From contig JAPPII010000004.1 of assembly GCA_028820845.1 (NCBI GenBank), forward strand, positions 20,314-84,313: DNA of 64,000 nt, read 5' to 3'. Position numbers and translations under genes: made by a program. Shown piece after piece: positions 20,691-40,115 of the stretch. Positions within the stretch are counted from its first letter, which is position 1; every line of letters starts with the position of its first letter. A model generated the notes under the pieces. It did no database searches. It worked only from the letters and a program-made list of their open reading frames with translations, and was not told the origin of the DNA. Origin of the DNA: Candidatus Poribacteria bacterium (GTDB taxonomy: Bacteria; Poribacteria; WGA-4E; WGA-3G).

Positions 20691-20925
20691 CGAACCGCGA
20701 ATCGCGAACCGTTTACCGCGAATCGCAAGACACAAACTATGGTAAACCTGAAAAATAAAAAGACACTTTACCCCGCCCCTGGTAGGTGCGGTTTCCAAGA
20801 CAGTGCTGAATGTCTGATTAATTCTAAGGTTTAGCATAAATGAACATTAAGAATTTAAATCGGTAATTCCAATTTTCCCCAAACTCAGTAGTAGTCTGTC
20901 AACCTTCAAATGATGGGGAAACCCC

Positions 20926-20997
20926 GGTTCGTAGTAGTGCGATTTATCGCACGTCAGGAACGGGCAATGAATTGCCCTACTACAAACTGCCTCTTAG
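20926..20997. repeat. 72-nt palindromic element: gttcgtagtag ... ctactacaaac termini with two internal hairpins. The second copy lies in inverse orientation at 25932-26003.
   Basis: ggttcgtagtagtgcgatttatcgcacgtcaggaacgggcaatgaattgccctactacaaac compared with the reverse complement of 25932-26003. Confidence 0.7.
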
Positions 20998-21185
20998 TTT
21001 AGATGTGACAGAACAGTAGGTGCGGTTTGTAACCGCACCGGATATTACCGAAATATTTTCTTAAACTTCATACAGCATACCGCGAACCGTTTACCGCGAA
21101 CCGTAAGACACAAACTAACAGTTTGTGGTACAAAAGACGCGAATAGCGAACCGCGATAAGCGAATAGCGAATAAGGAGAAAAATA

Positions 21186-27173: not shown

Positions 27174-28259
27174 CTAAATCTCAGGCACTCGGACCGCAAC
27201 CTCTTTCCCTGCTGCGTGTGAGCGGAAGATACCGTCCATAATCACATTCGTGAGTAGGACACCCTCTGGGGGTATCGGAGACGGTGCGTCCGCTTTAACG
27301 GCTTCACGGAACGCCGTCATCTGTGCCTCCCAAACATCGACCTCTGGGAATCCTGAGAGTTGGATCGTGGTCATCCCCTCTGGTGGGTTCGGCGCTGCTG
27401 TCAAACCTTCCGATTCAACTAACTTCTTAAGTTCACCGCCGTATTCATCGGCATAGATAGTGGGTCCACCCAAAGAGATACCCATTTCCTTACCGAGACA
27501 GAAACTCGGACCGAGTGAATCCTGATGAATTGCCCAAGAGATCTTGAACACCATCACGCTGCCGTCTTCAAACCGGACCCACGCCACACCGAACTCTTCG
27601 ACATCCATAATACCGCGGAACCTCGGATCTTGCTGCGAAATATAGTCTTCGGTGATAGCCGAGACGCGCACGGGTTTCGGATACCCCATCGCATACAACG
27701 AGTTGTGCATGTTATAGACCCCGATGTCAACGATTGCACCGGCACCCGCAGTCTTTTTATAGATGAACGTACGCCCTGGATTCCCACGCCGTCTGCCTCC
27801 TGAGGATTCGGAATAGTAGATGTCGCCGAGAAAACCTTCATCGATGACCTTCTTGGCGAACTGGAGTCTCGGATTGAACGTGCTGTGGAGACCGATTTGC
27901 AGGATTTTACCGGATGCCTTTGCTGCGCGTGCCATAGCCGTTGCATCGGGGAGTTTGGCTGCCATCGGTTTTTCACAGAAGACGTGTTTACCGGCATTCA
28001 GTGCCGCGACAGTGGGTCGGCGGTGACCTTGGTTGTAAGTACAGACGCTAACTGTATCGATCTCGTCCATCTCAAGCATTTTGTTGTAGCTTGTGAAGAC
28101 GTGTTTTTTCGGGACACCCCACTGTTCGGCGGCTTCGTTTGCCTTGCTTTTGATGATGTCGCAGACGGCAACGATCTCAAAACCCCCGACTTTCATGTAG
28201 GTTCTCTGGTGTGCGCGGGAAATACCACCTGTGCCCACAATACCGACTCGAATCGTCAT
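27174..28259 (-). CDS. Gfo/Idh/MocA family NAD(P)-dependent oxidoreductase, copy 1 of a tandem pair.
   Basis: MTIRVGIVGTGGISRAHQ...VAVCDI... N-terminal Rossmann fold. Largely identical to 28356-29441. Confidence 0.85.
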   Translation of the reverse strand: MTIRVGIVGTGGISRAHQRTYMKVGGFEIVAVCDIIKSKANEAAEQWGVPKKHVFTSYNKMLEMDEIDTVSVCTYNQGHRRPTVAALNAGKHVFCEKPMAAKLPDATAMARAAKASGKILQIGLHSTFNPRLQFAKKVIDEGFLGDIYYSESSGGRRRGNPGRTFIYKKTAGAGAIVDIGVYNMHNSLYAMGYPKPVRVSAITEDYISQQDPRFRGIMDVEEFGVAWVRFEDGSVMVFKISWAIHQDSLGPSFCLGKEMGISLGGPTIYADEYGGELKKLVESEGLTAAPNPPEGMTTIQLSGFPEVDVWEAQMTAFREAVKADAPSPIPPEGVLLTNVIMDGIFRSHAAGKEVAVRVPEI

Positions 28260-28355: not shown

Positions 28356-29441
28356 CTAAATCTCAGGCACTCGGACCGCTACCTCTTTCTGTGCTTTATG
28401 CGATCGGAAGATACCATCCATAATCACATTTGTGAGCAGGACCCCTTCTGGTGGTATTGGCGACGGTGCGTCTGCTTTGACGGCTTCACGGAACGCGATC
28501 ATCTGTGCCGCCCAGTTATCTTCCTCTGGGAATCCTGAGAACCGAATCGTCGTCATTCCTTCCGGCGGGTTCGGTTCCGCTGTCAACCCTTCCGATTCAA
28601 CAAACTTCTTGAGATCCCCGCTGTATGCATCGGCGTAGACAACCGGTCCATCCAACGAGATCCCCGCTTTTTGACCAAGATGGAAGTTGCCGCCGAGAGA
28701 ATCCTGATGCACCGCCCAGGAGATTTTGAACACCAGCACGCCACCATTTTCAAACCGGACCCACGCCACACCGAACTCTTCGACATCCATGATACCGCGG
28801 AATCTCGGATCTTGCTGCGAAATGTAATCCTCGGTGATAGCAGAGACGCGCACGGGTTTCGGATACCCCATCGCATACAGCGATCTGTGCATGTTATAGA
28901 CACCGATATCAACGGTTGCCCCCGCGCCTGCTGTCTTTTTGTAGATGAACGTATGTCCCGGATTCCCACGTCGTCTGCACCCGGCAGATTCGGAGTAGTA
29001 GATGTCGCCGAGCAAGCCTTCATCGATCATCTTCCTTGCGAATTGGAGTCTCGGACTAAACGTCGGGTTGAGACCGATTTGCAGGATTTTGCCGGATGCC
29101 TTTGCTGCGCGGGCCATAGCAGTCGCATCGGGTAGCGTCGCTGCCATCGGTTTTTCACAGAGGACGTGTTTACCGGCGTTCAGTGCAGCGACGGTGGGTC
29201 GACGGTGTCCTTGATTATACGTGCAGACGCTAACTGCATCCAGTGCGTCCATTTCGAGCATTTTATTATAGCTGGAGAAGGCGTGCTTTCTGGGGACACC
29301 CCACTCGTCAGCGGCTTGATTCGCCTTACTTTTGATGATGTCGCAGACAGCAACAATCTCGAAACCCCCGACTTTCGTATAATACTGCTGGTGCGCACGC
29401 GAAATGCCACCCGTACCAATGATACCGACTCGGACTGTCAT
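28356..29441 (-). CDS. Gfo/Idh/MocA family oxidoreductase, copy 2 of the tandem pair.
   Basis: MTVRVGIIGTGGISRAHQQYYTKVGGFEIVAVCDIIKSKAN... Confidence 0.85.
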   Translation of the reverse strand: MTVRVGIIGTGGISRAHQQYYTKVGGFEIVAVCDIIKSKANQAADEWGVPRKHAFSSYNKMLEMDALDAVSVCTYNQGHRRPTVAALNAGKHVLCEKPMAATLPDATAMARAAKASGKILQIGLNPTFSPRLQFARKMIDEGLLGDIYYSESAGCRRRGNPGHTFIYKKTAGAGATVDIGVYNMHRSLYAMGYPKPVRVSAITEDYISQQDPRFRGIMDVEEFGVAWVRFENGGVLVFKISWAVHQDSLGGNFHLGQKAGISLDGPVVYADAYSGDLKKFVESEGLTAEPNPPEGMTTIRFSGFPEEDNWAAQMIAFREAVKADAPSPIPPEGVLLTNVIMDGIFRSHKAQKEVAVRVPEI

Positions 29442-29864
29442 ATTATATCACCCCATGAGCAGAATTGAATTGACATAAGAGTGTAGACGAAACCGGTTTG
29501 CAATGCAAGCGAAAAATAATCCATCATTTGTATACTTTGCAGACGCGCCACTTTCACTTCTAACATGCCGGCTCTTTCTTCCTGTAGGAGCGAGCTGTGC
29601 TCGCGACTTTTTTATCTCCCGATTTAAAAACTAATCTTCACCAAAATTAGTAGGCGAGGTTTCTAACCTCGCCGGTTCTCAGTCCACGATATAAACATTT
29701 CCCATTCATGCTTGCTCATAGTGCCTTGATAATTCTAAAATCTACTGCAACGACCTTCGGAAATTTGACACTTATTTGCATATTGTGATATACTTTGTAT
29801 ACCAACAGCCAAAATCAAACGTTGTATTTTCTATACATATACTTTGCTGGAAGGGACAAAATTT

Positions 29865-31271
29865 ATGACAGAGGCACCGTACAGCATCTTTGATTCACGC
29901 ACTCCTGACGATATCCACCATGAGATTCAAAAGGTTTATCTTGAAAACGCCCGACCATGGGTCATCGGATACAGCGGCGGAAAAGACTCGACGACTGCAC
30001 TTCAACTGATTTGGTATGCCCTTGCTGAATTGCCGCCAGAACAAAGGAAATATCCGGTCTACGTGATTTCATCTGATACATTGGTTGAGACACCGGTGAT
30101 TGTGAGCTACATCACTGGCACCTTAGACCGTATCGAGACGACTGCCCGCGAACAAAAGATGCCGTTTCAGACGGCCCTCGTCCGTCCAAAGACGGAAGAT
30201 ACCTTCTGGGTGAATCTCATCGGCAAAGGTTACCCTGCCCCGTATACACGCTTCCGGTGGTGTACGGACCGAATGAAAATCCAGCCAGCGAATCGGTTCA
30301 TATTGGAAAAAGTTGCTGAACACGGTGAAGTTATAATGGTTCTCGGGGTTCGCAAAGGTGAAAGTGCAACGCGCGATCAAGTCTTAAGTTTGCACCGTAT
30401 GAAAGATTCGCTCCTTTCACGACACACGACGTTACCCAATGCTTTTGTTTATACGCCTGTGGTCGATTTTACCATGGAAGACGTGTGGATGTATCTGTTA
30501 TCCAATCCCTCCCCGTGGGGCGGTGATAATCGACAGTTGGTGACACTCTATCGCAACACGAGCGCGGAAGGTGAGTGTCCTTTGGTGGTTGACGAGACAA
30601 CGCCATCTTGTGGAAACAGCCGCTTTGGATGCTGGACCTGCACTGTTGTAACAAAGGATAAAGCGATGGAAGGCCTAATTGATAGCGGGGAAGATTGGAT
30701 GCTACCCCTGCTTGAATTCCGTGACTTTCTTGCTGAGACCCAAGATCCTGTAAGGAAACCTGAAGTCCGCGAGCATCGTCGACGGAATGGACAAGTTATG
30801 ATCCTCAATAACAAACTTGTCCACGGTCCCTATACGTTGGACTTTTGCAAGGAACTCTTAACAAGACTTCTCACAACCCAGCAACAGGTTCGTAGAGACG
30901 GACCTGACCCAGATATCAAACTCATCACGGACGACGAGCTCGAAGAGATACGCAGGATCTGGCGAACCGAACGCCAAGATTGGGAAGACGCTGTCCCACA
31001 AATCTACACTGAGATTGTTGGAGACCGCGATTGGATCGTTGATAATACCCTCTCCTTTACTGAAAAGGATAAAGATATTTTGGAGGCGATCTGCAATGAA
31101 AACGGAATCCCTGTTACCCTTGTTGCAAAATTATTGGACACAGAGCGACAGATGGATGGAATGAGTCGACGTGCTGGAATACAATCCCGAATTGACGAGA
31201 TATTCCATGAGGATTGGCGTTCAGAAGAAGAAGTCCGGGCCGGTTTAGATAACGGTGATTTCCAACAATGA
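29865..31271 (+). CDS. dndC: DndC-like PAPS-reductase-fold ATP pyrophosphatase (DNA phosphorothioation protein DndC family).
   Basis: PP-loop WVIGYSGGKDSTTALQLIW. DndC-type Cys cluster ...ECPLVVDETTPSCGNSRFGCWTCTVV.... The ATG at 29865 is preceded by ggaaggg. A TTGACA-N18-TATACT promoter candidate lies at about 29776-29806. Confidence 0.8.
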   Translation: MTEAPYSIFDSRTPDDIHHEIQKVYLENARPWVIGYSGGKDSTTALQLIWYALAELPPEQRKYPVYVISSDTLVETPVIVSYITGTLDRIETTAREQKMPFQTALVRPKTEDTFWVNLIGKGYPAPYTRFRWCTDRMKIQPANRFILEKVAEHGEVIMVLGVRKGESATRDQVLSLHRMKDSLLSRHTTLPNAFVYTPVVDFTMEDVWMYLLSNPSPWGGDNRQLVTLYRNTSAEGECPLVVDETTPSCGNSRFGCWTCTVVTKDKAMEGLIDSGEDWMLPLLEFRDFLAETQDPVRKPEVREHRRRNGQVMILNNKLVHGPYTLDFCKELLTRLLTTQQQVRRDGPDPDIKLITDDELEEIRRIWRTERQDWEDAVPQIYTEIVGDRDWIVDNTLSFTEKDKDILEAICNENGIPVTLVAKLLDTERQMDGMSRRAGIQSRIDEIFHEDWRSEEEVRAGLDNGDFQQ

Positions 31272-33295
31272 TTATCCACAAGCTCACTCTTAACAATATT
31301 GGTCTGTTCCGCGGGACACAAACTATTAATCTTACACCGAACGGCAAGGGCCCCATAATCCTTATTGGCGGGATGAACGGGGCTGGTAAAACGACGCTCT
31401 TAGACGCAATTCGTCTTTGTTTGTACGGCAGGCGGTCCCTTGGGAACCGCGTCAGCCACAATGAATATTATGACTATCTCTCTTCATTGATTCATCGCGG
31501 TTCTGATTCAACAATACCTTTGAATCACGCTGCTGTATCACTTGAGTTTGAATATGCACACAGTGGAGAAACGAAACAATACCGTATTGAACGCACATGG
31601 CAACGGTCTGGCTCAAAACACCATAGCGTTAGCGAAGGTTTGACAATCTCCGAAAATAACTGGTTGAATACCGAATTTGACGCGGAACATTGGCAGGATC
31701 GTATTTATGAGTTTATCCCTATTGGGGTCTCCCAATTCTTTTTTTTCGACGGTGAGGACATCCAAAAATTGGCAGACGACTCCAAGCACGACCTATATCT
31801 CGCTGAGTCAACCAAAGCGTTGCTTGGGATAAACTTGGTGGAGCGATTACAATCGGATTTGCGTATCTACGCGAATCGTCTCGTGAAGCGTGATAGCCCT
31901 GAACCGGTCCAGAAAGAAATTGTGGAAGTAGAAGCAGAAATTGCTACGCTTGAGTCTGCACTCAGAGATACATACGTACGTGCAGAAGCTTTGGACATTC
32001 AAAGTGAGAAACTGGAAAACCAGATTGAGAGACAAGAATTGATCATTGCAGCCGAAGGTGGAGGTTATGCAGCGAAGCGAGAAAGCCTGAAAGTACAACA
32101 GGGACAGCTTCTTGCTGATATTGAGGCGTTGGAGACTGATATCCGAGACCTATGCGGTGAACTGTTTCCGTTTGCCTTAGTCCCTGATCTGCTCAAGAAA
32201 CTGGAAGATCGGCTCCTTAAAGAGATTGAATTAGACGAATGGGAAGCAAAGAATCTCGCCTTAGAATCTGTCAACACTGAAGTACTTAAGACCTTGGCAT
32301 CTGCCGCATTTTGGGATAGTGTCTCTTTACCTGAACCACAAATTGAAGCAGTTCGTTCCAAAATCACGCCATTCCTGAAAACCCAACTTGAAAAAACAAA
32401 ACGTGAACAACCAGAGACACTTCGCGGCTTCAAGAAGATCCGGGACCGCTCTCCTTCGGAGTACGGTCACCTATTGGAGTGGATTGATGCCTGCCTTAAT
32501 GAAGTGCCTCAAGAATTTCGTGAGTTGAATGATACATTAGCAAAAGCACAATTAGAACTGCAAAAGGTGGATCAGGACCTTCAGAAAGTCCCAGCCGAAG
32601 AGGTCTTGAAACCACTGATCGAAAAATTGTCCCTGTCAAATCAAGAACTTGGACAACTCCATAAAGAGGAACAAGAGGCAGAACAATCTATCAAATCTTT
32701 AGAGTATCAACTTGAAGTGGCAGAGCGAAAATTGGATAAACTGCGTCACACACAACAATTAGGAGAAGCACACGTCCAACGTCAACAACGCGTAGAAAAC
32801 GTGCAATCGGTGCTTTCTGCTTACACAACACGGTTGACCCAAGCTAAAATCGCTACATTGAGTGAGGCCATTGTACAAGGTTTTAATCAACTTTCACATA
32901 AACCCGATCGGATTAGACGCGTTGAAATTGACCCCCTGACCTTTGCTGTGACGCTCTATGATACCCAGAATCGCGCACTACGAAAAGAGAAGTTATCCGC
33001 GGGTGAGAAACAAATTTACACAACTGCCCTTTTATGGGCATTAGCGAAAACATCAGGTAAGGCATTACCGATGATTCTTGACACCCCGCTTGGACGTTTG
33101 GACAGTAGTCACAGACGACTTCTTATTGAACGTTATTTTCCGTATGCGAGTCATCAAGTTGTTCTGTTGTCAACCGACACCGAGGTCCAGGGATACTTGC
33201 GTTCGCTATTGGATCCCTACATTTCGCGTACTTTCCACTTGGTGTATCAACAAGTTGAAGGGTATACGACAATAAAGGAAGGCTATTTTGGGTAA
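31268..33295 (+). CDS. dndD: DndD-like SMC/ABC-type ATPase (DNA sulfur modification protein DndD family).
   Basis: N-terminus MIIHKLTLNNIGLFRGTQTINLTPNGKGPIILIGGMNGAGKTTLLDAIRLCLYG is the characteristic DndD start with Walker A. Long coiled-coil middle region. C-terminal signature and Walker B ...LSAGEKQIYTTALLWAL...PMILDTPLGRLD. The start overlaps the dndC stop (ATGA). Confidence 0.85.
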   Translation: MIIHKLTLNNIGLFRGTQTINLTPNGKGPIILIGGMNGAGKTTLLDAIRLCLYGRRSLGNRVSHNEYYDYLSSLIHRGSDSTIPLNHAAVSLEFEYAHSGETKQYRIERTWQRSGSKHHSVSEGLTISENNWLNTEFDAEHWQDRIYEFIPIGVSQFFFFDGEDIQKLADDSKHDLYLAESTKALLGINLVERLQSDLRIYANRLVKRDSPEPVQKEIVEVEAEIATLESALRDTYVRAEALDIQSEKLENQIERQELIIAAEGGGYAAKRESLKVQQGQLLADIEALETDIRDLCGELFPFALVPDLLKKLEDRLLKEIELDEWEAKNLALESVNTEVLKTLASAAFWDSVSLPEPQIEAVRSKITPFLKTQLEKTKREQPETLRGFKKIRDRSPSEYGHLLEWIDACLNEVPQEFRELNDTLAKAQLELQKVDQDLQKVPAEEVLKPLIEKLSLSNQELGQLHKEEQEAEQSIKSLEYQLEVAERKLDKLRHTQQLGEAHVQRQQRVENVQSVLSAYTTRLTQAKIATLSEAIVQGFNQLSHKPDRIRRVEIDPLTFAVTLYDTQNRALRKEKLSAGEKQIYTTALLWALAKTSGKALPMILDTPLGRLDSSHRRLLIERYFPYASHQVVLLSTDTEVQGYLRSLLDPYISRTFHLVYQQVEGYTTIKEGYFG

Positions 33296-33588
33296 TACTA
33301 AAATTTGGACAGTTCGTTTTGTTTCAAGTTGTGTTTTCCAATACCTCGGTGTTTTTCAGCAAGTTTTCCTAAAGGTGTAGTTCGCCAAAAAACAGGATTT
33401 CGGGTGAGAATATAAGCAACCCTTGCAGAATGCCACACGCGCATTCTGCATTGATTCCGGGGTGACATGTGTCATAAAATCTGAAGTAGGTGTCAAAAAA
33501 TTTGTGTTCAATTCAACTGCCTCACGGGAATTCTTAAAATTGTCCAAAGTTTAGTAAATCTATACACAAGTAGGGAAACAACATATTA

Positions 33589-34575
33589 ATGAAAAAGATA
33601 CGTAAAAGGACAATAGGATCTGTTAAGTCAGAACTTCTTGCTAAGGCACGAGAGGCAGCTTTATGTGCTATCCAAATTTTCAATTCCCCTCAAATTTTCT
33701 TCAAATCAGAGACTTTTATAGTCCTTATGGTAATAGCATGGACCTATATGCTTCATGCTTACTACAGATCTAAAGGTATCGAATACCGGTATTATAAACA
33801 GAGAGGTAAGAGAAAATCCTTTGAGCGAACTAAACATAAATCTTATAGATATTGGGAACTTGAAACCTGTTTAAGGCGTGATGAGTGCCCAATTGACATT
33901 AACACAACTAATAATCTTCTATTTCTGATAGGGCTCCGTCACGAAATTGAACATCAAATGACTCGTTCACTTGATAACTATCTGAGTGGCCACTATCAAG
34001 CATGTGCTCTGAACTTCAATCACTACATGAAGGAACTCTTTGGAGACAGATATGGCATCGATGATCATTTGGCATTCAGCATCCAGTTTATGAAACATTC
34101 GGAGGAACAAATTCTTGGTTCCAAGCCTGAGCCAAATATTCCAGAGCATCTACAAACTTATATTACTGAATTTAATGCTAGCCTAACCGAGGATCAGCGT
34201 AACAGTGAAAATTATGTAATCCGGCTAGTGTTCCGACCAAAGTTAGTTAATCGCCCGGGGCAAGCAGACAAGGTTATTGACTTTGTTAAGCCTGACTCAG
34301 CAGCTCCTTTTGAAGATAACGGGACATTGTACGTAACAACAAAGGAGATCGAACGTCCTAAACTCCTCCCTTCCGCTGTGGCGGCAAAGGTGCAAGAAGC
34401 AGGTTTTAAAAAGTTCAGGACTCAACCAGAGCATGTCAGGATGTGGAAAGCAGAAGATGCAAAGAATCCCAGCAAAGGATATGGCGTTGAAGTGCAAGGT
34501 CAATGGTATTGGTATGAATCTTGGGTTAAACGCTGTCTTGAATTGTGTAAAGCAGCTGGCGATCTTTACCGTTGA
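33589..34575 (+). CDS. Hypothetical protein with a HEPN-like R-x4-H motif; possible abortive-infection-type effector.
   Basis: LLFLIGLRHEIEHQMT contains RHEIEH (Rx4H) inside a predicted helical region. No other family recognised. AT-rich codon usage typical of the island. Confidence 0.35.
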   Translation: MKKIRKRTIGSVKSELLAKAREAALCAIQIFNSPQIFFKSETFIVLMVIAWTYMLHAYYRSKGIEYRYYKQRGKRKSFERTKHKSYRYWELETCLRRDECPIDINTTNNLLFLIGLRHEIEHQMTRSLDNYLSGHYQACALNFNHYMKELFGDRYGIDDHLAFSIQFMKHSEEQILGSKPEPNIPEHLQTYITEFNASLTEDQRNSENYVIRLVFRPKLVNRPGQADKVIDFVKPDSAAPFEDNGTLYVTTKEIERPKLLPSAVAAKVQEAGFKKFRTQPEHVRMWKAEDAKNPSKGYGVEVQGQWYWYESWVKRCLELCKAAGDLYR

Positions 34576-34616
34576 GAGACCAATCGAGTGTTAAATAATC
34601 CTTAAGCCATTCGTAG

Positions 34617-35573
34617 TTACTTTCTAAAAGCTTCCTCACGATGCCACGCCAAAGCATCTTGAGCCGGGTAAAGTGCGTCGTGTTCAGGCAACAATATAGT
34701 CTTCTCGCTCAGTTGAGTTAGCATCCACTCCGTTGGTCTTCTTTCTGACATGAGTACAGAGACAATAACTTGATAGGTCTCGTTCAAAGAAATTAAGCCT
34801 TTGTCAAAAGCCCAATGGTGCAATTTGCAAAGCGAGATTCCATTCCGCACATCGTCATTTCTTGAAATACGAAATGGAATGATGTGCGCGGCATCAGTCG
34901 CACTTTCCCCATCCATTGTGACAATGCGTAACCGACAAACAGCACAAGTATAATCGTACATTCTCATAATTGCTTGACGAAAGCCCGCAGTACGAATTGG
35001 ATTCTCTCTTTCAATTGGTGCTATCGGTTGCTGGGATGAAAATGTCTGTTCGACCTGTCGGATCAGCAACTGTCTGTACTCTCCAATTTGTTGTTCTTCT
35101 GTAATGAGGCTTTTGATCGCTTGCTCGAATTTAGAGAAATAGGTGTGAATAAGCGTTTGACGGAGAACCTCTCGATCTCGCGGGGTAGTGAGCAAAACAA
35201 AAAGCTCATCATCTAAACTTGCGTATGCAACAACTTCCCGAAGGCGGGATATTGATGTAATTCTACTCCTAACACTCAGGGCTTTTTCGTAACCAGCGTT
35301 TGGATGAAGGTGCCAGAAACCTCTGCCCGTTAGATGAAAAAATGGCAGAGCAATATTAGGTTTTCGATCTGTTACTACCTTCGTCCAATATTTCAGGAAA
35401 GTTTCTGCCAAATCTGGAGACAATAGTACTTTATTTTCCTGAATTTGTCCTTGCTCAATCAGTGCGATAATGACTAACAGAAGAAGCGGTTGGTGGGGTG
35501 CCGCACCATGTGCTCGGTCTATCCGCAAGCTTTTGAATTTTTGGACGTATTTTTGTAGGATAGTATTAGCCAT
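34617..35573 (-). CDS. HNH endonuclease with an about 200-aa N-terminal domain of unknown type (possibly a DNA or modification reader).
   Basis: C-terminal HNH: YDYTCAVCRL...DAAHIIPFRISRNDDVRNGISLCKLHHWAFDKG. Confidence 0.75.
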   Translation of the reverse strand: MANTILQKYVQKFKSLRIDRAHGAAPHQPLLLLVIIALIEQGQIQENKVLLSPDLAETFLKYWTKVVTDRKPNIALPFFHLTGRGFWHLHPNAGYEKALSVRSRITSISRLREVVAYASLDDELFVLLTTPRDREVLRQTLIHTYFSKFEQAIKSLITEEQQIGEYRQLLIRQVEQTFSSQQPIAPIERENPIRTAGFRQAIMRMYDYTCAVCRLRIVTMDGESATDAAHIIPFRISRNDDVRNGISLCKLHHWAFDKGLISLNETYQVIVSVLMSERRPTEWMLTQLSEKTILLPEHDALYPAQDALAWHREEAFRK

Positions 35574-35782
35574 CTTTTTACTGATACTGTGTTAAGTAAG
35601 ACTGGCAATTTTCTGGTGTCGGGTGTGAGACCGCAACCTATTTTTCACTAATACTGTGTAGCTTAAACACGGGGTATAAAAGTCTTTGACAAGATCTGCT
35701 CCATCGGAACGATATTCGTATTTTAACGAGATTTCTTTGAGTGATATAAAAGTTTTTCCAAAAAGTTAACTGTTTTCTAACA

Positions 35783-35845
35783 CCACAATTTTAACATATT
35801 TTGTAAAAAAATTCAAAATTTTCCTGACCGCTATCAAAGTCTACT
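35783..35845 (-). promoter_or_regulatory. Promoter/operator copy A, upstream of the HNH gene. Reverse strand reads TTGAAT-N17-TTAAAAT.
   Basis: About 55 bp nearly identical to 37738-37800: cacaattttaacatattttgtaaaaaaattcaaaattttcctgacc against cggcaattctaacatatttcgtgaaaaaatgtcaaaattttcctaac. Confidence 0.6.
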
Positions 35846-35956: not shown

Positions 35957-37219
35957 TTACAAGACTCTTTTCGGTAATTGAACCTGGTTCGTCTCTTGTT
36001 CTAATGCCTTAGCATAATCCTCGCGTAATTTATTTACATCCCCCGAAAATTGATTCAGCATATAGAATAACAAATTTTTAGCGAGCGTCTTACCTTTTAT
36101 GATCATCTTTTTTTTTGTAGGGTGCCAGATGATACCATTATAGGGGACTTGGGTCAGGTCTGTAGGTAATTTTGAAAGCATCTTGAAACATTCAGGGAGT
36201 GGATACTTCTCTGCAAGTACCGCGATGACTTCTGTTAATATCTTGAGACCTATAGGACGAAAAAGGACGCTGCCTCCGTCTGAATGTCTATATTTCTTAA
36301 CAACTGTTGAATTGTCAGATGTATTAGCAAATTCCTGCAAGGGTAAAAAACTATTTGTAAGGCGTTTAAAGTAATCACAAGCATTGTCGTAATGCTGATT
36401 GAGAATCTCATCTGATTGGCGTATTTTCGTGAGTTCATCTTTTTTCTCTTTAAGTGTCTTTCTTTTTGAGAGGACGTATACTTTGGTAAAGAGTATGTCT
36501 AACAGATCGTAAAGATTCCCAATCGTCGTGAGACAGGTCTGATTACTTTTTGGGATACTATCGGGCACATTGTTTAAAATTCGTGGGTCCATAAACATCG
36601 GATTTCCCGCAACCAACCGTCGGACAATAATAGCTATCGTATCGTTCTCATCAAGAGCGATAATTTCTCCTTTTGAAACCCGGACAGCATTTTTATTTAA
36701 AGTCGTGAAAAGCCTCCGGCTCCTTTCCACTCCTTCTATATCCGTTCTGTGCGCGATGAAAATAATAGACAATTCCTCTTCGCCCAATTGTGGGTTCTCT
36801 GTTACAGCTGCTTTAATTCCTATGAGGCGGTGTTGCCCATCTAATGTGAATAGTTTTTCTTCTCCGTTCAGACTTAGAATTCCGATCCCCGCGACTACAT
36901 CTTCTGGAATCTCTTCAGGATCCAATTGGTTGTTGCTCTTGATATGGGTAATATCATACCAGCTGGGGTCGCCTTCATAGGCTGCGACAATCAGCGAATT
37001 AAAAAAACGTTGTTCCTGTTTTAAGAGATAATCTCTTATCTCGTTCCCTCGTTTTCTTTTTATCTCTCGTTGTACCATCTCGCTCAAGGTTTTGCTTTGG
37101 TAAATTTCCTCAGCAATTTTAACCCTTTCAGCGATGTCTTTAAGTTTCATGAGGGTAGGGTAATAGACCCAATCACCCACTATGCCTCTTAGCGACGGAA
37201 GATATAATTTTTCCATCAT
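35957..37219 (-). CDS. dndB: DGQHR-domain protein (DndB family).
   Basis: ...KLFTLDGQHRLIGIKAAV... contains the DGQHR motif. The N-terminus MMEKLYLPSLRGIVGDWVYYPTLMKL is typical of DndB-like proteins. Confidence 0.75.
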   Translation of the reverse strand: MMEKLYLPSLRGIVGDWVYYPTLMKLKDIAERVKIAEEIYQSKTLSEMVQREIKRKRGNEIRDYLLKQEQRFFNSLIVAAYEGDPSWYDITHIKSNNQLDPEEIPEDVVAGIGILSLNGEEKLFTLDGQHRLIGIKAAVTENPQLGEEELSIIFIAHRTDIEGVERSRRLFTTLNKNAVRVSKGEIIALDENDTIAIIVRRLVAGNPMFMDPRILNNVPDSIPKSNQTCLTTIGNLYDLLDILFTKVYVLSKRKTLKEKKDELTKIRQSDEILNQHYDNACDYFKRLTNSFLPLQEFANTSDNSTVVKKYRHSDGGSVLFRPIGLKILTEVIAVLAEKYPLPECFKMLSKLPTDLTQVPYNGIIWHPTKKKMIIKGKTLAKNLLFYMLNQFSGDVNKLREDYAKALEQETNQVQLPKRVL

Positions 37220-37716
37220 TTTAGTCCTTTGATTATGTCTCGTACTTCCGCTGAATATCCTCGTTCAACGAAAGGTGGTGTGAAGGTATCTAATAGCATG
37301 CGCTCTAGCTGTTTTAAATCCATCTCGGTTGGATCTACTTCGACGTAATAAAAATACAGATAGTTTTCCCATGTATTTAGCATAAGGTGAATACGTCTTC
37401 TTTTGGGATGCTGTTTGTAATAGAGATAATCTCTAAATCTTTTTTGTAAGTCCCGCTCGCTCTCATGTCCTGTTTGTCCGAGGTATACTAAATAACCATG
37501 CGCTGGAAAATTACCAATTCTGGGTTCAATGAAAAAAGCGTAAATTCCCTTCTCAGTAGGGATCTTATTCGCGTTGTTTCTTTCAAACTTTACGCATTGC
37601 CAATCTAATGCAATCCGTGGGGCAGTGTAGGTATCCCACTGTTCTTTCCAAAGAAAAAAGGATCTTTGATAAATACTTACATCTTTTTGCTGATCAATTG
37701 GATCTTGGTATACCAT
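37216..37716 (-). CDS. Small GIY-YIG-like nuclease domain protein, translationally coupled to the DGQHR gene by a 4-nt overlap.
   Basis: EKGIYAFFIEP...HGYLVYLGQTGHESERDLQKRFRDYLYY parallels GIY...YVGKAKDLKKRLSSY of GIY-YIG nucleases. The GIY-to-YxG spacing is longer than usual. Confidence 0.45.
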   Translation of the reverse strand: MVYQDPIDQQKDVSIYQRSFFLWKEQWDTYTAPRIALDWQCVKFERNNANKIPTEKGIYAFFIEPRIGNFPAHGYLVYLGQTGHESERDLQKRFRDYLYYKQHPKRRRIHLMLNTWENYLYFYYVEVDPTEMDLKQLERMLLDTFTPPFVERGYSAEVRDIIKGLK

Positions 37717-37737: not shown

Positions 37738-37800
37738 CACGGCAATTCTAACATATTTCGTGAAAAAATGTCAAAATTTTCCTAACACTACCAAAATCCG
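37738..37800 (-). promoter_or_regulatory. Promoter/operator copy B, upstream of the GIY-YIG/DGQHR operon. Reverse strand reads TTGACA-N17-TTAGAAT.
   Basis: Same 55-bp element as 35783-35845. Confidence 0.6.
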
Positions 37801-38474: not shown

Positions 38475-39305
38475 ATGAGACTATTTATGACTGTTGCTGG
38501 CGTACTATGCGCTGCAACCCTTGCGCTTCTGGCACCCACAGCCGATGCTGCAAATAAAGTAGATGTGTTCATCTACACGGACACAGTGCAGTGGATCGGT
38601 CAAGCCGCAGCAGTAGAAGAAGCCGAAATACTGGCGGACCTACTTGACGGACAAGACGGAATCGGCGAACTCATCCTTCACGGGCCAGCAAAAACTGTTG
38701 AAGCCTGGACAAAAGACCATACCGTGGACAATGGACACCATCTCATTGTCATGTTCGGTGATGTACCCGTCGAAATTTACGACGTCGGGAAAGATGCCAA
38801 AAAAGAAACCGTCGCCGAGGAGTTCCTTGATGCAGGTAACACCTTCTCGAACAGTGCCGACTACTTTTTCTGGGGACAGGGCGGCAGAAATGAAGAAGCC
38901 GGTATCAAGAATATGATGGATATCCCCAATATGGTGCAGTGGGATGATAATACGGCTATGGAGGTTACCAAAGAGGGGAAAGAACTTACACCCACACTTG
39001 ATGACTACGCGACAGACCGACCCTTCCACGTTGATAAACTTGATGGTGATTGGGTTTTAGAAATCGCATTCGCTTCGGATACTGGAGACCAAAAAGCCGA
39101 CCGCTGTGACCCTTGTATCGTCCACAATACGAAAACGAATGGACGACTCATTCAGGTCTACCAAACCGCTAACCAAGATGACCCGAAAGGCGAAGTTATC
39201 GCCGAAATTATTCTCAACTACTACCTTGAGACTGTCGGCGCCCTTGACGTTGACCCTCAAGATAAACTTCCCGCTTTATGGGGAGATATGAAAAGAAGGA
39301 GATAA
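38475..39305 (+). CDS. Secreted hypothetical protein, paralogue A.
   Basis: Signal peptide MRLFMTVAGVLCAATLALLAPTADA. Shares GRNEEAGIKNMMDI, DRPFHVDKLDGDWVLE and VYQTANQDDPKGEVIAEII blocks with the next ORF. Confidence 0.6.
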   Translation: MRLFMTVAGVLCAATLALLAPTADAANKVDVFIYTDTVQWIGQAAAVEEAEILADLLDGQDGIGELILHGPAKTVEAWTKDHTVDNGHHLIVMFGDVPVEIYDVGKDAKKETVAEEFLDAGNTFSNSADYFFWGQGGRNEEAGIKNMMDIPNMVQWDDNTAMEVTKEGKELTPTLDDYATDRPFHVDKLDGDWVLEIAFASDTGDQKADRCDPCIVHNTKTNGRLIQVYQTANQDDPKGEVIAEIILNYYLETVGALDVDPQDKLPALWGDMKRRR

Positions 39306-39311
39306 CATTTA

Positions 39312-40115
39312 ATGCGAAATATTTTTCTGTCACTCACGCTTATTGCTTTACTGGCACTGCCGCTAACGCCGGTCTTTGCTGCCGGTGAAGTCGCTATCTA
39401 CACAGGTGTCACGCAGTGGATCGGTAAAGCACCCGCCGACGAACAGGCAGAAATCTGTGTCGATATGCTCAACGATGCTGGTATCTCTAACACATGGTAC
39501 GATGCCGAGGCAGATACGGATGCCTTGGCGGATTGGATGGAGAGTGTCACCGGTGATGGTGGACTGGATATCTGTGTCCTCTATGGTGATTTTCCACCAA
39601 GCCTCTACCCAGAAGGTAATACACAAACGGATGGCTCCATTGCCGAAACGTTCATCGAAACCACCGATGGCGATGTGTTCATCAATCACGCCGATTACAT
39701 GTTCTGGGGACTCGCTGGCAGGAACGAAGAAGGCGGGCTAAAGAATATGATGGATATCGACGGGATCACCATGTGGGACGATAACACCGACATGGTTGTC
39801 ACCTCTGAAGGTGCCGCTATCTCTCCTACGCTCACTGATTTCCAATCTGACCGTCCCTTCCACGTCGATGAATTGGAAGGCAATTGGGAAGTCGAAGTTT
39901 CCCTCGCACAGAACGATGACGGCACTCGTGCCGATCCGATTATCGTGCGCGATGGAAACCTTGGTCGACTGATTCCAGTGATACAGACAGCAAACGGCGA
40001 TGAACCGAAAGGCGCAGTTGCCGCTGAAATTATCACCTGGCTCATGGCCACAACGCCGGTCGAACCTGCTGACAAGCTTTCCACAACGTGGGGTGCTTTG
40101 AAAGCAGTCCGATAA
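39312..40115 (+). CDS. Secreted hypothetical protein, paralogue B (tandem duplicate of 38475-39305).
   Basis: Signal peptide MRNIFLSLTLIALLALPLTPVFA. Shares GRNEEGGLKNMMDI, DRPFHVDELEGNWEVE and VIQTANGDEPKGAVAAEII. Confidence 0.6.
   Translation: MRNIFLSLTLIALLALPLTPVFAAGEVAIYTGVTQWIGKAPADEQAEICVDMLNDAGISNTWYDAEADTDALADWMESVTGDGGLDICVLYGDFPPSLYPEGNTQTDGSIAETFIETTDGDVFINHADYMFWGLAGRNEEGGLKNMMDIDGITMWDDNTDMVVTSEGAAISPTLTDFQSDRPFHVDELEGNWEVEVSLAQNDDGTRADPIIVRDGNLGRLIPVIQTANGDEPKGAVAAEIITWLMATTPVEPADKLSTTWGALKAVR

Follow-up and report, generated by a model that had tools for sequence, protein, structure and literature searches.

A gene encoding a two-domain endonuclease was identified near the DNA phosphorothioation genes dndC and dndD in a 64-kb stretch of DNA from a Candidatus Poribacteria bacterium (contig JAPPII010000004.1), referred to here as the window. 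The protein consists of a sulfur-binding domain (SBD) at the N terminus and a C-terminal HNH nuclease domain (SBD-HNH), and its locus lacks dndE and most of a module that faces the dnd genes in related strains. The SBD-HNH gene and an intact dndE exclude each other at this site in the Poribacteria loci examined. The enzyme probably acts as a type IV nuclease on phosphorothioated DNA of foreign origin, its host being one that would no longer write phosphorothioate (PT) itself, a reading of the sequence that we hold with moderate confidence. ScoMcrA, SprMcrA and EcoWI are type IV, modification-dependent restriction enzymes. The protein of the window is itself an ordinary and under-annotated member of a family whose description dates from 2018, and the natural experiment around its gene is more useful. 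The exchange at the locus and the exclusion of dndE are the more interesting result, which fits existing expectations rather than overturning them.

Domains and family membership of the endonuclease

34617..35573, minus strand: SBD-HNH endonuclease gene (open reading frame with ATG start, 318 aa; exact NCBI match MDE0423384.1)
35106..35558, minus strand: SBD, residues 6-156 (PDB 8H0L; PF26340 on homologues; Foldseek)
34782..34946, minus strand: HNH (beta-beta-alpha-metal) domain, residues 210-264 (Pfam PF13391, HNH_2; E 3.9e-13)

The HNH endonuclease open reading frame (ORF) that had been proposed from the DNA alone in the original prediction is real. Its product is 100% identical to MDE0423384.1, which is recorded as "HNH endonuclease [Candidatus Poribacteria bacterium]" with no fuller annotation. 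A Pfam scan of the nuclease returned HNH_2 only; DUF262 and DUF1524 were not found. The residues C210, C213, H230, N244, C249 and H253 are invariant in homologue alignments A1 and A2, and the pair H252/H253 is conserved. With a profile, the HNH domains of TagI (6GHS, 1.6e-7) and 6YEX (9e-7) are matched by the C-terminal part of the protein.

The original prediction described residues 1-200 as unassigned and suggested that they might form a ScoMcrA-like sulfur reader. The description is fair for the local copy of Pfam-A, which gives zero matches in this region, and the suggestion is borne out by sequence, profile and fold. In a single-sequence search of the PDB, residues 6-156 match 8H0L (E 2.5e-20), the SBD of Hahella ganghwensis Hga (SBDHga) crystallised on PT DNA, and the match rises to E 8.4e-29 with a profile of seven family members. 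The ScoMcrA SBD (5ZMO) is aligned in register by the profile, only at E 0.37. PF26340 (DNA-SBD_ScoMcrA) and PF13391 are precomputed on close homologues, PF26340 being present on those with 94%, 77% and 74% identity. In the fold comparison that had been proposed as a check, Foldseek against the PDB with the N-domain model (predicted local distance difference test, pLDDT, 69) returned SBDs as the top four and sole meaningful matches, and not an unrelated fold. These include 8H0L (E 2.5e-8, TM-score 0.57-0.63) and the SprMcrA SBDs 7CCD and 7CC9, which show approximately 19-20% identity to the SBD of the window in the fold alignment. On sequence and modelled structure, the N-terminal domain is identified as an SBD with the predicted winged-helix-like SBD fold.

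The sulfur cavity of SBDHga is formed by H25, K26, L75, P76 and H79 (PMC10602919). By alignment, the predicted cavity residues of the window protein are H27, Q28, L76, P77 and H80, and the ScoMcrA equivalents are H116, R117, Y164, P165 and A168. The expected pattern is H followed by K/R on helix A2 and [Y/L]-P-x-x-[A/H] on helix A4. Four of the five residues (H27, L76, P77 and H80) are conserved, and the sole change is from K/R to Q28. Among 120 close homologues, the cavity dipeptide is HK in 69, NK in 28 and HQ in 15. A candidate link between this dipeptide and the dnd neighbourhood was rejected, with zero association across 80 species-level loci (dnd-linked loci: HK, 17/45; HQ, 4/14; NK, 3/10). 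The K-to-Q change therefore does not represent adaptation to a dnd neighbourhood.

Hga carries the closest solved SBD, which is approximately 35% identical over 150 residues and shares the L-P-x-x-H cavity helix. It differs in having a PD-(D/E)XK nuclease rather than HNH, and in having K26 and R18 where the window protein has Q28 and A21, respectively. The two-domain SBD-HNH enzymes of the SprMcrA/EcoWI type share the N-terminal SBD, the C-terminal HNH_2, a length of approximately 300 aa and, by alignment, a cavity built of H, P and a hydrophobic wall. The gene of the window lies inside a degraded dnd/pbe locus and not in a genome known to lack dnd. ScoMcrA, with the architecture SBD-SRA-HNH, is the founder of the PT-dependent type IV SBD-HNH enzymes. 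The window protein, known here from sequence alone, differs from ScoMcrA and SprMcrA in its low SBD similarity, in the Q for K/R and in its score with NCBIfam NF045808 (PT-DNA_restrict, "phosphorothioated DNA-binding restriction endonuclease"), which is 135 bits against a cut-off of 180 and does not pass. The protein and the NF045808 model align from one end to the other (residues 11-317 with positions 5-284 of the 284 in the model). Since the model is of the narrow "exception" type, the score points to a distant member rather than to a protein outside the family. These comparisons support the assignment of the protein, on its sequence, as a distant member of the known SBD-HNH family of the ScoMcrA/SprMcrA/EcoWI kind.

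The protein might alternatively be a weakened or non-PT-specific HNH nuclease, either a relic or an enzyme whose SBD is now a general DNA-binding winged helix, so that its proximity to dnd would have no functional consequence. We consider this improbable. It is favoured by Q28 in place of a positive, sulfur-contacting residue, as the R117Q change in ScoMcrA weakens binding of PT, although abolition is not reported (PMC6224610), and by the NF045808 score below cut-off. A dnd-linked SBD-HNH enzyme, Bsp48385I, has low, modification-independent activity (Lutz et al., PMC7461809). A split copy is also found in the same 90% cluster, as P0363 (116 aa) and P0364 (166 aa) on one 90,163-bp European Nucleotide Archive contig; it is a frameshifted or truncated allele in another genome. 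Against such decay, the ORF of the window is intact, the ratio of nonsynonymous to synonymous substitution rates (dN/dS) of the nuclease is 0.10-0.19 in most pairs, and conservation extends to every catalytic residue and to the four cavity residues other than Q28. Moreover, HQ, HK and NK persist across many species, often in tandem paralogues, a pattern that resembles diversification rather than decay.

Two tandem SBD-HNH paralogues, approximately 52-62% identical to the window protein, are found in several Poribacteria (related loci are given by L numbers).

Tandem paralogues: L012 10001-12030; L015 9672-11608; L017 10001-12105; L019 2027-4130; L022 9995-12111; L026 3221-5167

The paralogues differ in cavity dipeptide (HK, YK, HQ and NK) and in L1 loops, and from their sequences this variation looks like diversification of specificity.

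Replacement of dndE and exclusion from dndE-intact loci

29844..31271, plus strand: dndC (longest ORF 475 aa, true start perhaps further downstream; TIGR03183, NF005316)
31268..33295, plus strand: dndD (675 aa; TIGR03185 equivalog, 531 bits against a cut-off of 246)
33296..33588: junction that follows the stop codon of dndD, the dndE site in sister loci, with no dndE remnant
33589..34575, plus strand: DUF3644 gene, a PADLOC PDC-S19 candidate defence gene (328 aa; PF12358, E 3.5e-58; PDC-S19, E 1.5e-140)
35664..35747, minus strand: pbeA stub, first 28 codons (tblastn; start ATG changed to ATA)

The dndC gene scores 578 bits with the TIGR03183 equivalog (cut-off 290) and 649 bits with NF005316 (cut-off 536), and DndD is 100% identical to an NCBI Poribacteria DndD. 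The nuclease gene had been placed next to dndCD; both dnd genes are present, but the nuclease is not directly adjacent to them, as the DUF3644 gene intervenes between dndD and the nuclease. It is convergent with the nuclease gene and is cargo of the same inserted segment.

No dndE was detected in the 64-kb window by Pfam on small ORFs, by tblastn with three and then six DndE proteins, or by hidden Markov model (HMM); no weight was placed on the second HMM round, into which long fusion ORFs had entered as contaminants. No dndA was found in the window either. In sister loci, dndE starts 7 bp after dndD, and permissive blastn and tblastn of the junction and a DNA comparison of 15 loci revealed no dndE remnant after the dndD stop codon of the window. 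On the other side of the nuclease gene, the 28-codon pbeA stub shows 86% and 82% identity to the pbeA products of L092 and L179, respectively (tblastn, E 4e-10). A search for PbeC in the window gave nothing beyond a weak cross-match to dndD. The window lacks dndE, pbeA beyond codon 28, pbeC and the genes for the small protein, the PF27807 protein and the 576-584-aa protein that occur in complete loci. The pbeA stub and the lack of dndE together indicate that everything from pbeA codon 29 through dndE has been replaced, by a segment of 2.4 kb (33296-35663) with the DUF3644 and SBD-HNH genes.

The Poribacteria loci all lie at one chromosomal site, between the paralogous 267/276-aa genes and a GFO_IDH_MocA pair. 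In the complete state, seen in DndD- or DndE-anchored loci, dndC-dndD-dndE faces a second module, whose products are a protein of 576-584 aa, a PF27807 protein, an ABC ATPase of the CxC type, a protein of 56 aa and an HKD/DEAD helicase. With the PADLOC models, the helicase scored 801 bits as PbeA and the ATPase 446 bits as PbeC, whereas the small protein and the PF27807 protein of this module gave zero matches. The PbeA and PbeC scores mark the complete locus as a PT-based defence of the dndCDE-pbeABCD type. The ancestral content corresponds to the dndCDE(A)-pbeABCD systems (PMC6459918; Xiong et al. 2019) and to the CxC-ABC ATPase systems described by Aravind and colleagues (PMC10853773). Compared with dndCDE-pbeABCD, the window keeps dndC, dndD and the pbeA stub, whereas the rest is replaced by SBD-HNH and DUF3644.

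The SBD-HNH gene is present in none of the nine dndE-intact loci (L090, L092, L094 and L174-L179), and intact dndE is present in none of the 13 loci with dndCD and SBD-HNH (the window, L001, L005, L016-L018, L020, L022, L036-L038, L091 and L093). A Fisher test on this 13-to-9 split gives p ~2e-6, a value that ignores shared ancestry and the way in which the loci were chosen. The DndD-anchored loci L090-L094, selected on neither gene, all follow the exclusion rule (5/5). With a Poribacteria DndE query, the SBD-HNH loci show 5' dndE stubs of approximately 9, 12, 14, 19, 21, 35 or 73 codons, or nothing. The breakpoints of these stubs differ (six or more), and the cargo following them includes ZorE-like HNH, SMODS with SLATT, DUF3644 and SBD-HNH genes. 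Both configurations occur within one sponge sample, ERZ24894577 (L001 and L179). Exclusivity at the genome-wide level was also considered. Among the matches listed, up to 120 per list and representing 90% clusters, no chromosome of >1 Mb is common to the SBD-HNH and DndE lists, and this was not counted as evidence.

One lineage thus carries at one site either a PT writer with its restriction partner or a PT reader with dndE overwritten, and both together in none of the Poribacteria loci examined. This gives direct genomic support to what Lutz et al. (2020, PMC7461809) raised only as a possibility, namely that the writers next to dnd-adjacent SBD-HNH genes are disabled. A further suggestion is that related strains alternate between PT as "self" and PT as "foreign", which, if true, would shape phage and gene flow in sponge symbiont populations. 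For annotation, it is advisable not to count a dndCD pair as a functioning Dnd defence system when it stands beside an "HNH endonuclease".

The cargo has also moved between loci. In L017 and L022, the cargo (two SBD-HNH paralogues, the ZorE-like HNH gene and the dndE stub) is 95-99% identical, whereas dndD and dndC are 83-91% identical. Nearly identical cargo on diverged dndCD indicates that the cassette was exchanged by homologous recombination and arrived recently. This bears on a further reading, in which dndC, dndD and SBD-HNH would form an undescribed dndE-independent PT system that marks invading DNA, or all DNA on infection, and then cuts it; the same reading may be framed as an abortive-infection scheme. 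It would account for the retention of intact dndC and dndD in most SBD-HNH loci despite many independent dndE breakpoints, but recent, recombination-driven replacement of the cassette can explain this. No precedent for such a system exists, dndE being required in every system tested (PMC9521924). Furthermore, L012, L015 and L019 carry the nuclease at the same site without any dndCD, and dndD is split in L018. The reading is accordingly considered highly improbable.

Several other observations were made at this site. A second HNH protein of approximately 268 aa, with weak PADLOC ZorE matches, is encoded right after the dndE stub in three loci and does not occur in the window.

Second HNH gene: L001 12249-13058; L017 13566-14378; L022 12241-13044

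SMODS and SLATT cargo lies between dndD and SBD-HNH in L005 (11037-12513) and in L091 (12465-15234, plus SLFN/AlbA_2), with similar cargo in L016, L018 and L037; from this recurrence, the slot behaves as a defence-gene hot spot. In the dndE-intact locus L178 (6731-9994), dndD is interrupted by an insertion sequence element (rve/HTH_Tnp_1 genes) and pbeA is also fragmented, which indicates that a writer-type locus can decay as well.

Proposed function and relatives in other bacteria

Cleavage of PT-DNA and restriction of dnd+ plasmids are known from characterised SBD-HNH enzymes (PMC6224610, PMC7461809). In the mechanism proposed for the window protein, which is that of ScoMcrA, SprMcrA and EcoWI, the SBD would read the PT linkage in duplex DNA via a small hydrophobic cavity (H27, L76, P77 and H80), with Q28 at the position where most relatives carry K or R. 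A helical linker of approximately 50 residues would join the SBD to a zinc-bound HNH nuclease that cuts nearby. The part of the former locus, of the dndCDE and pbeA-pbeC type, from pbeA codon 29 to the end of dndE has been overwritten by the SBD-HNH and DUF3644 segment. With dndE gone, PT is most likely no longer written into the host's own DNA, and it is proposed that the nuclease is tolerable because dndE was lost. The nuclease would then treat PT as a foreign mark, for example on phage or plasmid DNA from PT-writing sister strains in the same sponge. In the simplest reading, the strain would have switched from PT as self (writer with Pbe-type restriction) to PT as foreign (type IV SBD-HNH).

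The original prediction regarded the co-residence of such a reader with dndCD as paradoxical unless the dnd genes were inactive. At the sequence level this holds, as the dnd module of the window is without dndE, and deletion of dndE in Salmonella abolishes phosphorothioation (from 3973 modified sites to one; PMC9521924). The context largely removes the apparent clash between the reader and dndCD.

Several points weigh against this type IV reading. The substitution Q28 may weaken sulfur binding. The AlphaFold2 model of the N-domain (79 sequences) is of moderate quality, and the full-length model (31 close homologues) has a pLDDT of 49 and is unusable. The absence of dndE refers to 64 kb of a 195-kb contig, and dndE elsewhere in the genome is possible. 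Both dndC and dndD are intact with low dN/dS (0.03-0.27), which may not reflect selection after the loss of dndE, because the loci form a recombination mosaic; with the nearly identical cargo and diverged dndCD of L017 and L022, the ratio was rejected as decisive proof that dndCD is still needed. Finally, outside Poribacteria, complete dndCDE clusters in cyanobacteria, in Chloroflexota and at several metagenome loci have homologues with 36-50% identity beside them, and incompatibility with a writer is therefore not universal in the family.

A family search gave 894 matches, mostly from Poribacteria with 68-94% identity. A scan of one genome per species yielded 80 loci in Poribacteria, Nitrospirae, Pyrinomonadaceae, Cyanobacteria, Binatia and Chloroflexota. 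DndC, DndD or DndE is encoded within 10 kb in 24 of the 80 loci (28 with weak matches), and the same linkage is seen on plasmids of Candidatus Chlorohelix and Picosynechococcus. The dnd linkage reported for SBD-HNH enzymes in general, <3.6% (Lutz et al., PMC7461809), is far below this. HNH proteins with this winged helix-turn-helix domain, the SBD, had already been described in Dnd loci of 698 taxa and proposed as restriction partners, the dnd-linked architecture being wHTH(SBD)+SAD+HNH (Aravind and colleagues, PMC10853773).

This distribution bears on a reading in which an active Dnd system has SBD-HNH as its restriction arm, the host writing PT with dndE in trans or without dndE. The SBD would park or silence the nuclease on host PT sites, and unmodified invader DNA would be cut, similarly to SspE and DndI, in which PT sensing serves to prevent damage to self. 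Besides the linkage to dnd genes across five or more phyla and the intact dndC and dndD of the window, this is favoured by same-strand dnd adjacency in L043, L093 and the cyanobacterial and Chlorohelix loci with complete dndCDE. An SBD-HNH-like gene also occurs together with intact dndE in 9 of 80 DndD-anchored metagenome loci; in these scans a single DndD sequence gave nothing and an alignment gave mostly distant DndD loci. Precedents and a proposal of this kind have been published (PMC10853773, PMC9646914, PMC11662687). SspE and DndI likewise have a PT reader fused to an HNH-superfamily nuclease beside PT-writer genes (PMC9646914, PMC11662687). However, their reader has the unrelated ParB-like DUF262 fold with a DGQQR NTPase motif and is followed by a C-terminal DUF1524 HNH, all absent from the window protein. 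They are switched by NTP hydrolysis and need a PT-modified host, features that are not predicted here. In addition, the exclusion of nuclease and dndE at the Poribacteria locus is perfect (0/9 and 0/13), the cassette physically overwrites dndE, and all characterised SBD-HNH enzymes cut, and do not spare, PT-DNA. For the window, an active Dnd system is considered unlikely. By analogy with SspE and DndI, a cooperative role is possible in cyanobacteria, Chloroflexota and the several metagenome loci (PMC9646914, PMC11662687).

Neighbouring genes and side observations

35957..37219, minus strand: DGQHR-domain, DndB-like (ParB superfamily) gene (420 aa; TIGR03187, 114 bits against a cut-off of 59)
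37216..37716, minus strand: small GIY-YIG-like gene (166 aa; weak Pfam GIY-YIG, E 1.2e-3, below cut-off)
35788..35828, minus strand: promoter-like element before the pbeA stub (TTGAAT, 17 nt, TAAAAT; upstream TG)
37745..37786, minus strand: conserved promoter-like element before the GIY-DGQHR pair (TTGACA, 18 nt, TAGAAT)
27174-28259 and 28356-29441: tandem 361-aa GFO_IDH_MocA oxidoreductase genes (first 300 nt 83% identical)
38475-39305 and 39312-40115: tandem 276/267-aa protein genes (zero Pfam, NCBIfam or PADLOC matches)

The DGQHR protein scores below the cut-off of the DndB equivalog model, and its orthologues in the dndE-intact loci L090 and L092 show 77-80% identity. The GIY-YIG-like gene overlaps the DGQHR gene by 4 nt, and the pair is kept in L001, L012, L015, L090 and L092. 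The two genes were considered as nuclease-specific partners, and this was rejected; because they are also present in L090 and L092, they are ancestral genes of the Dnd locus.

Upstream of the GIY-DGQHR pair in several loci, and of pbeA in L179, lies a conserved promoter-like element of approximately 50 nt, of which the window has two copies. From this sequence, with its putative promoter function, the nuclease is probably transcribed from the old pbeA promoter.

Both tandem duplications flank the island and form the borders of the variable site in other Poribacteria too. The G+C content is 0.39-0.42 across 32-38 kb of the window and approximately 0.49 in the flanks. A DNA search against E. coli genomes gave nothing similar, and no Rfam families or tRNAs were found in the window. 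An intergenic sequence of 125 nt at window positions 20889-21011 is 82% identical to L001 12069-12192, which lies between the DUF3644 and second HNH genes of that locus; the sequence could represent a small element that is repeated or mobile.

In cyanobacteria, a short ORF of 140-210 aa matching the window protein lies immediately upstream of the SBD-HNH gene.

Short upstream ORFs: L046 9971-11434; L047 9412-10972; L054 9401-10942; L061 9780-11367; L066 3235-4823; L068 3087-4620

These ORFs lie near complete dndC-dndD-dndE and a second, distant DndD-like ATPase. The product is presumably an SBD-only protein, and its role could be that of a partner or immunity-like factor allowing reader and writer to coexist.

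In Nitrospirae and Pyrinomonadaceae, the SBD-HNH gene is on the same strand as, and just downstream of, a DndC-like gene.

DndC-like and SBD-HNH loci: L041 6670-10203; L042 1763-5802; L043 8607-13705

No DndD was detected in these three loci, and in L041 and L042 a longer ORF, DndE-like at its N-terminus, comes after the SBD-HNH gene. The three loci may represent a different Dnd-like operon layout.

Poribacteria SBD-HNH genes outside the dnd site have a cysteine desulfurase gene 0.4-4.2 kb away, whose product is 50-51% identical to archaeal DndA.

Desulfurase-linked loci: L002 14356-15576; L003 12674-13891; also L010, L013, L014, L021 and L039

In L002 and L003 the desulfurase gene is followed by one for a ParA/Mrp-like ATPase, and the desulfurase near these non-dnd SBD-HNH genes probably belongs to housekeeping Fe-S assembly.

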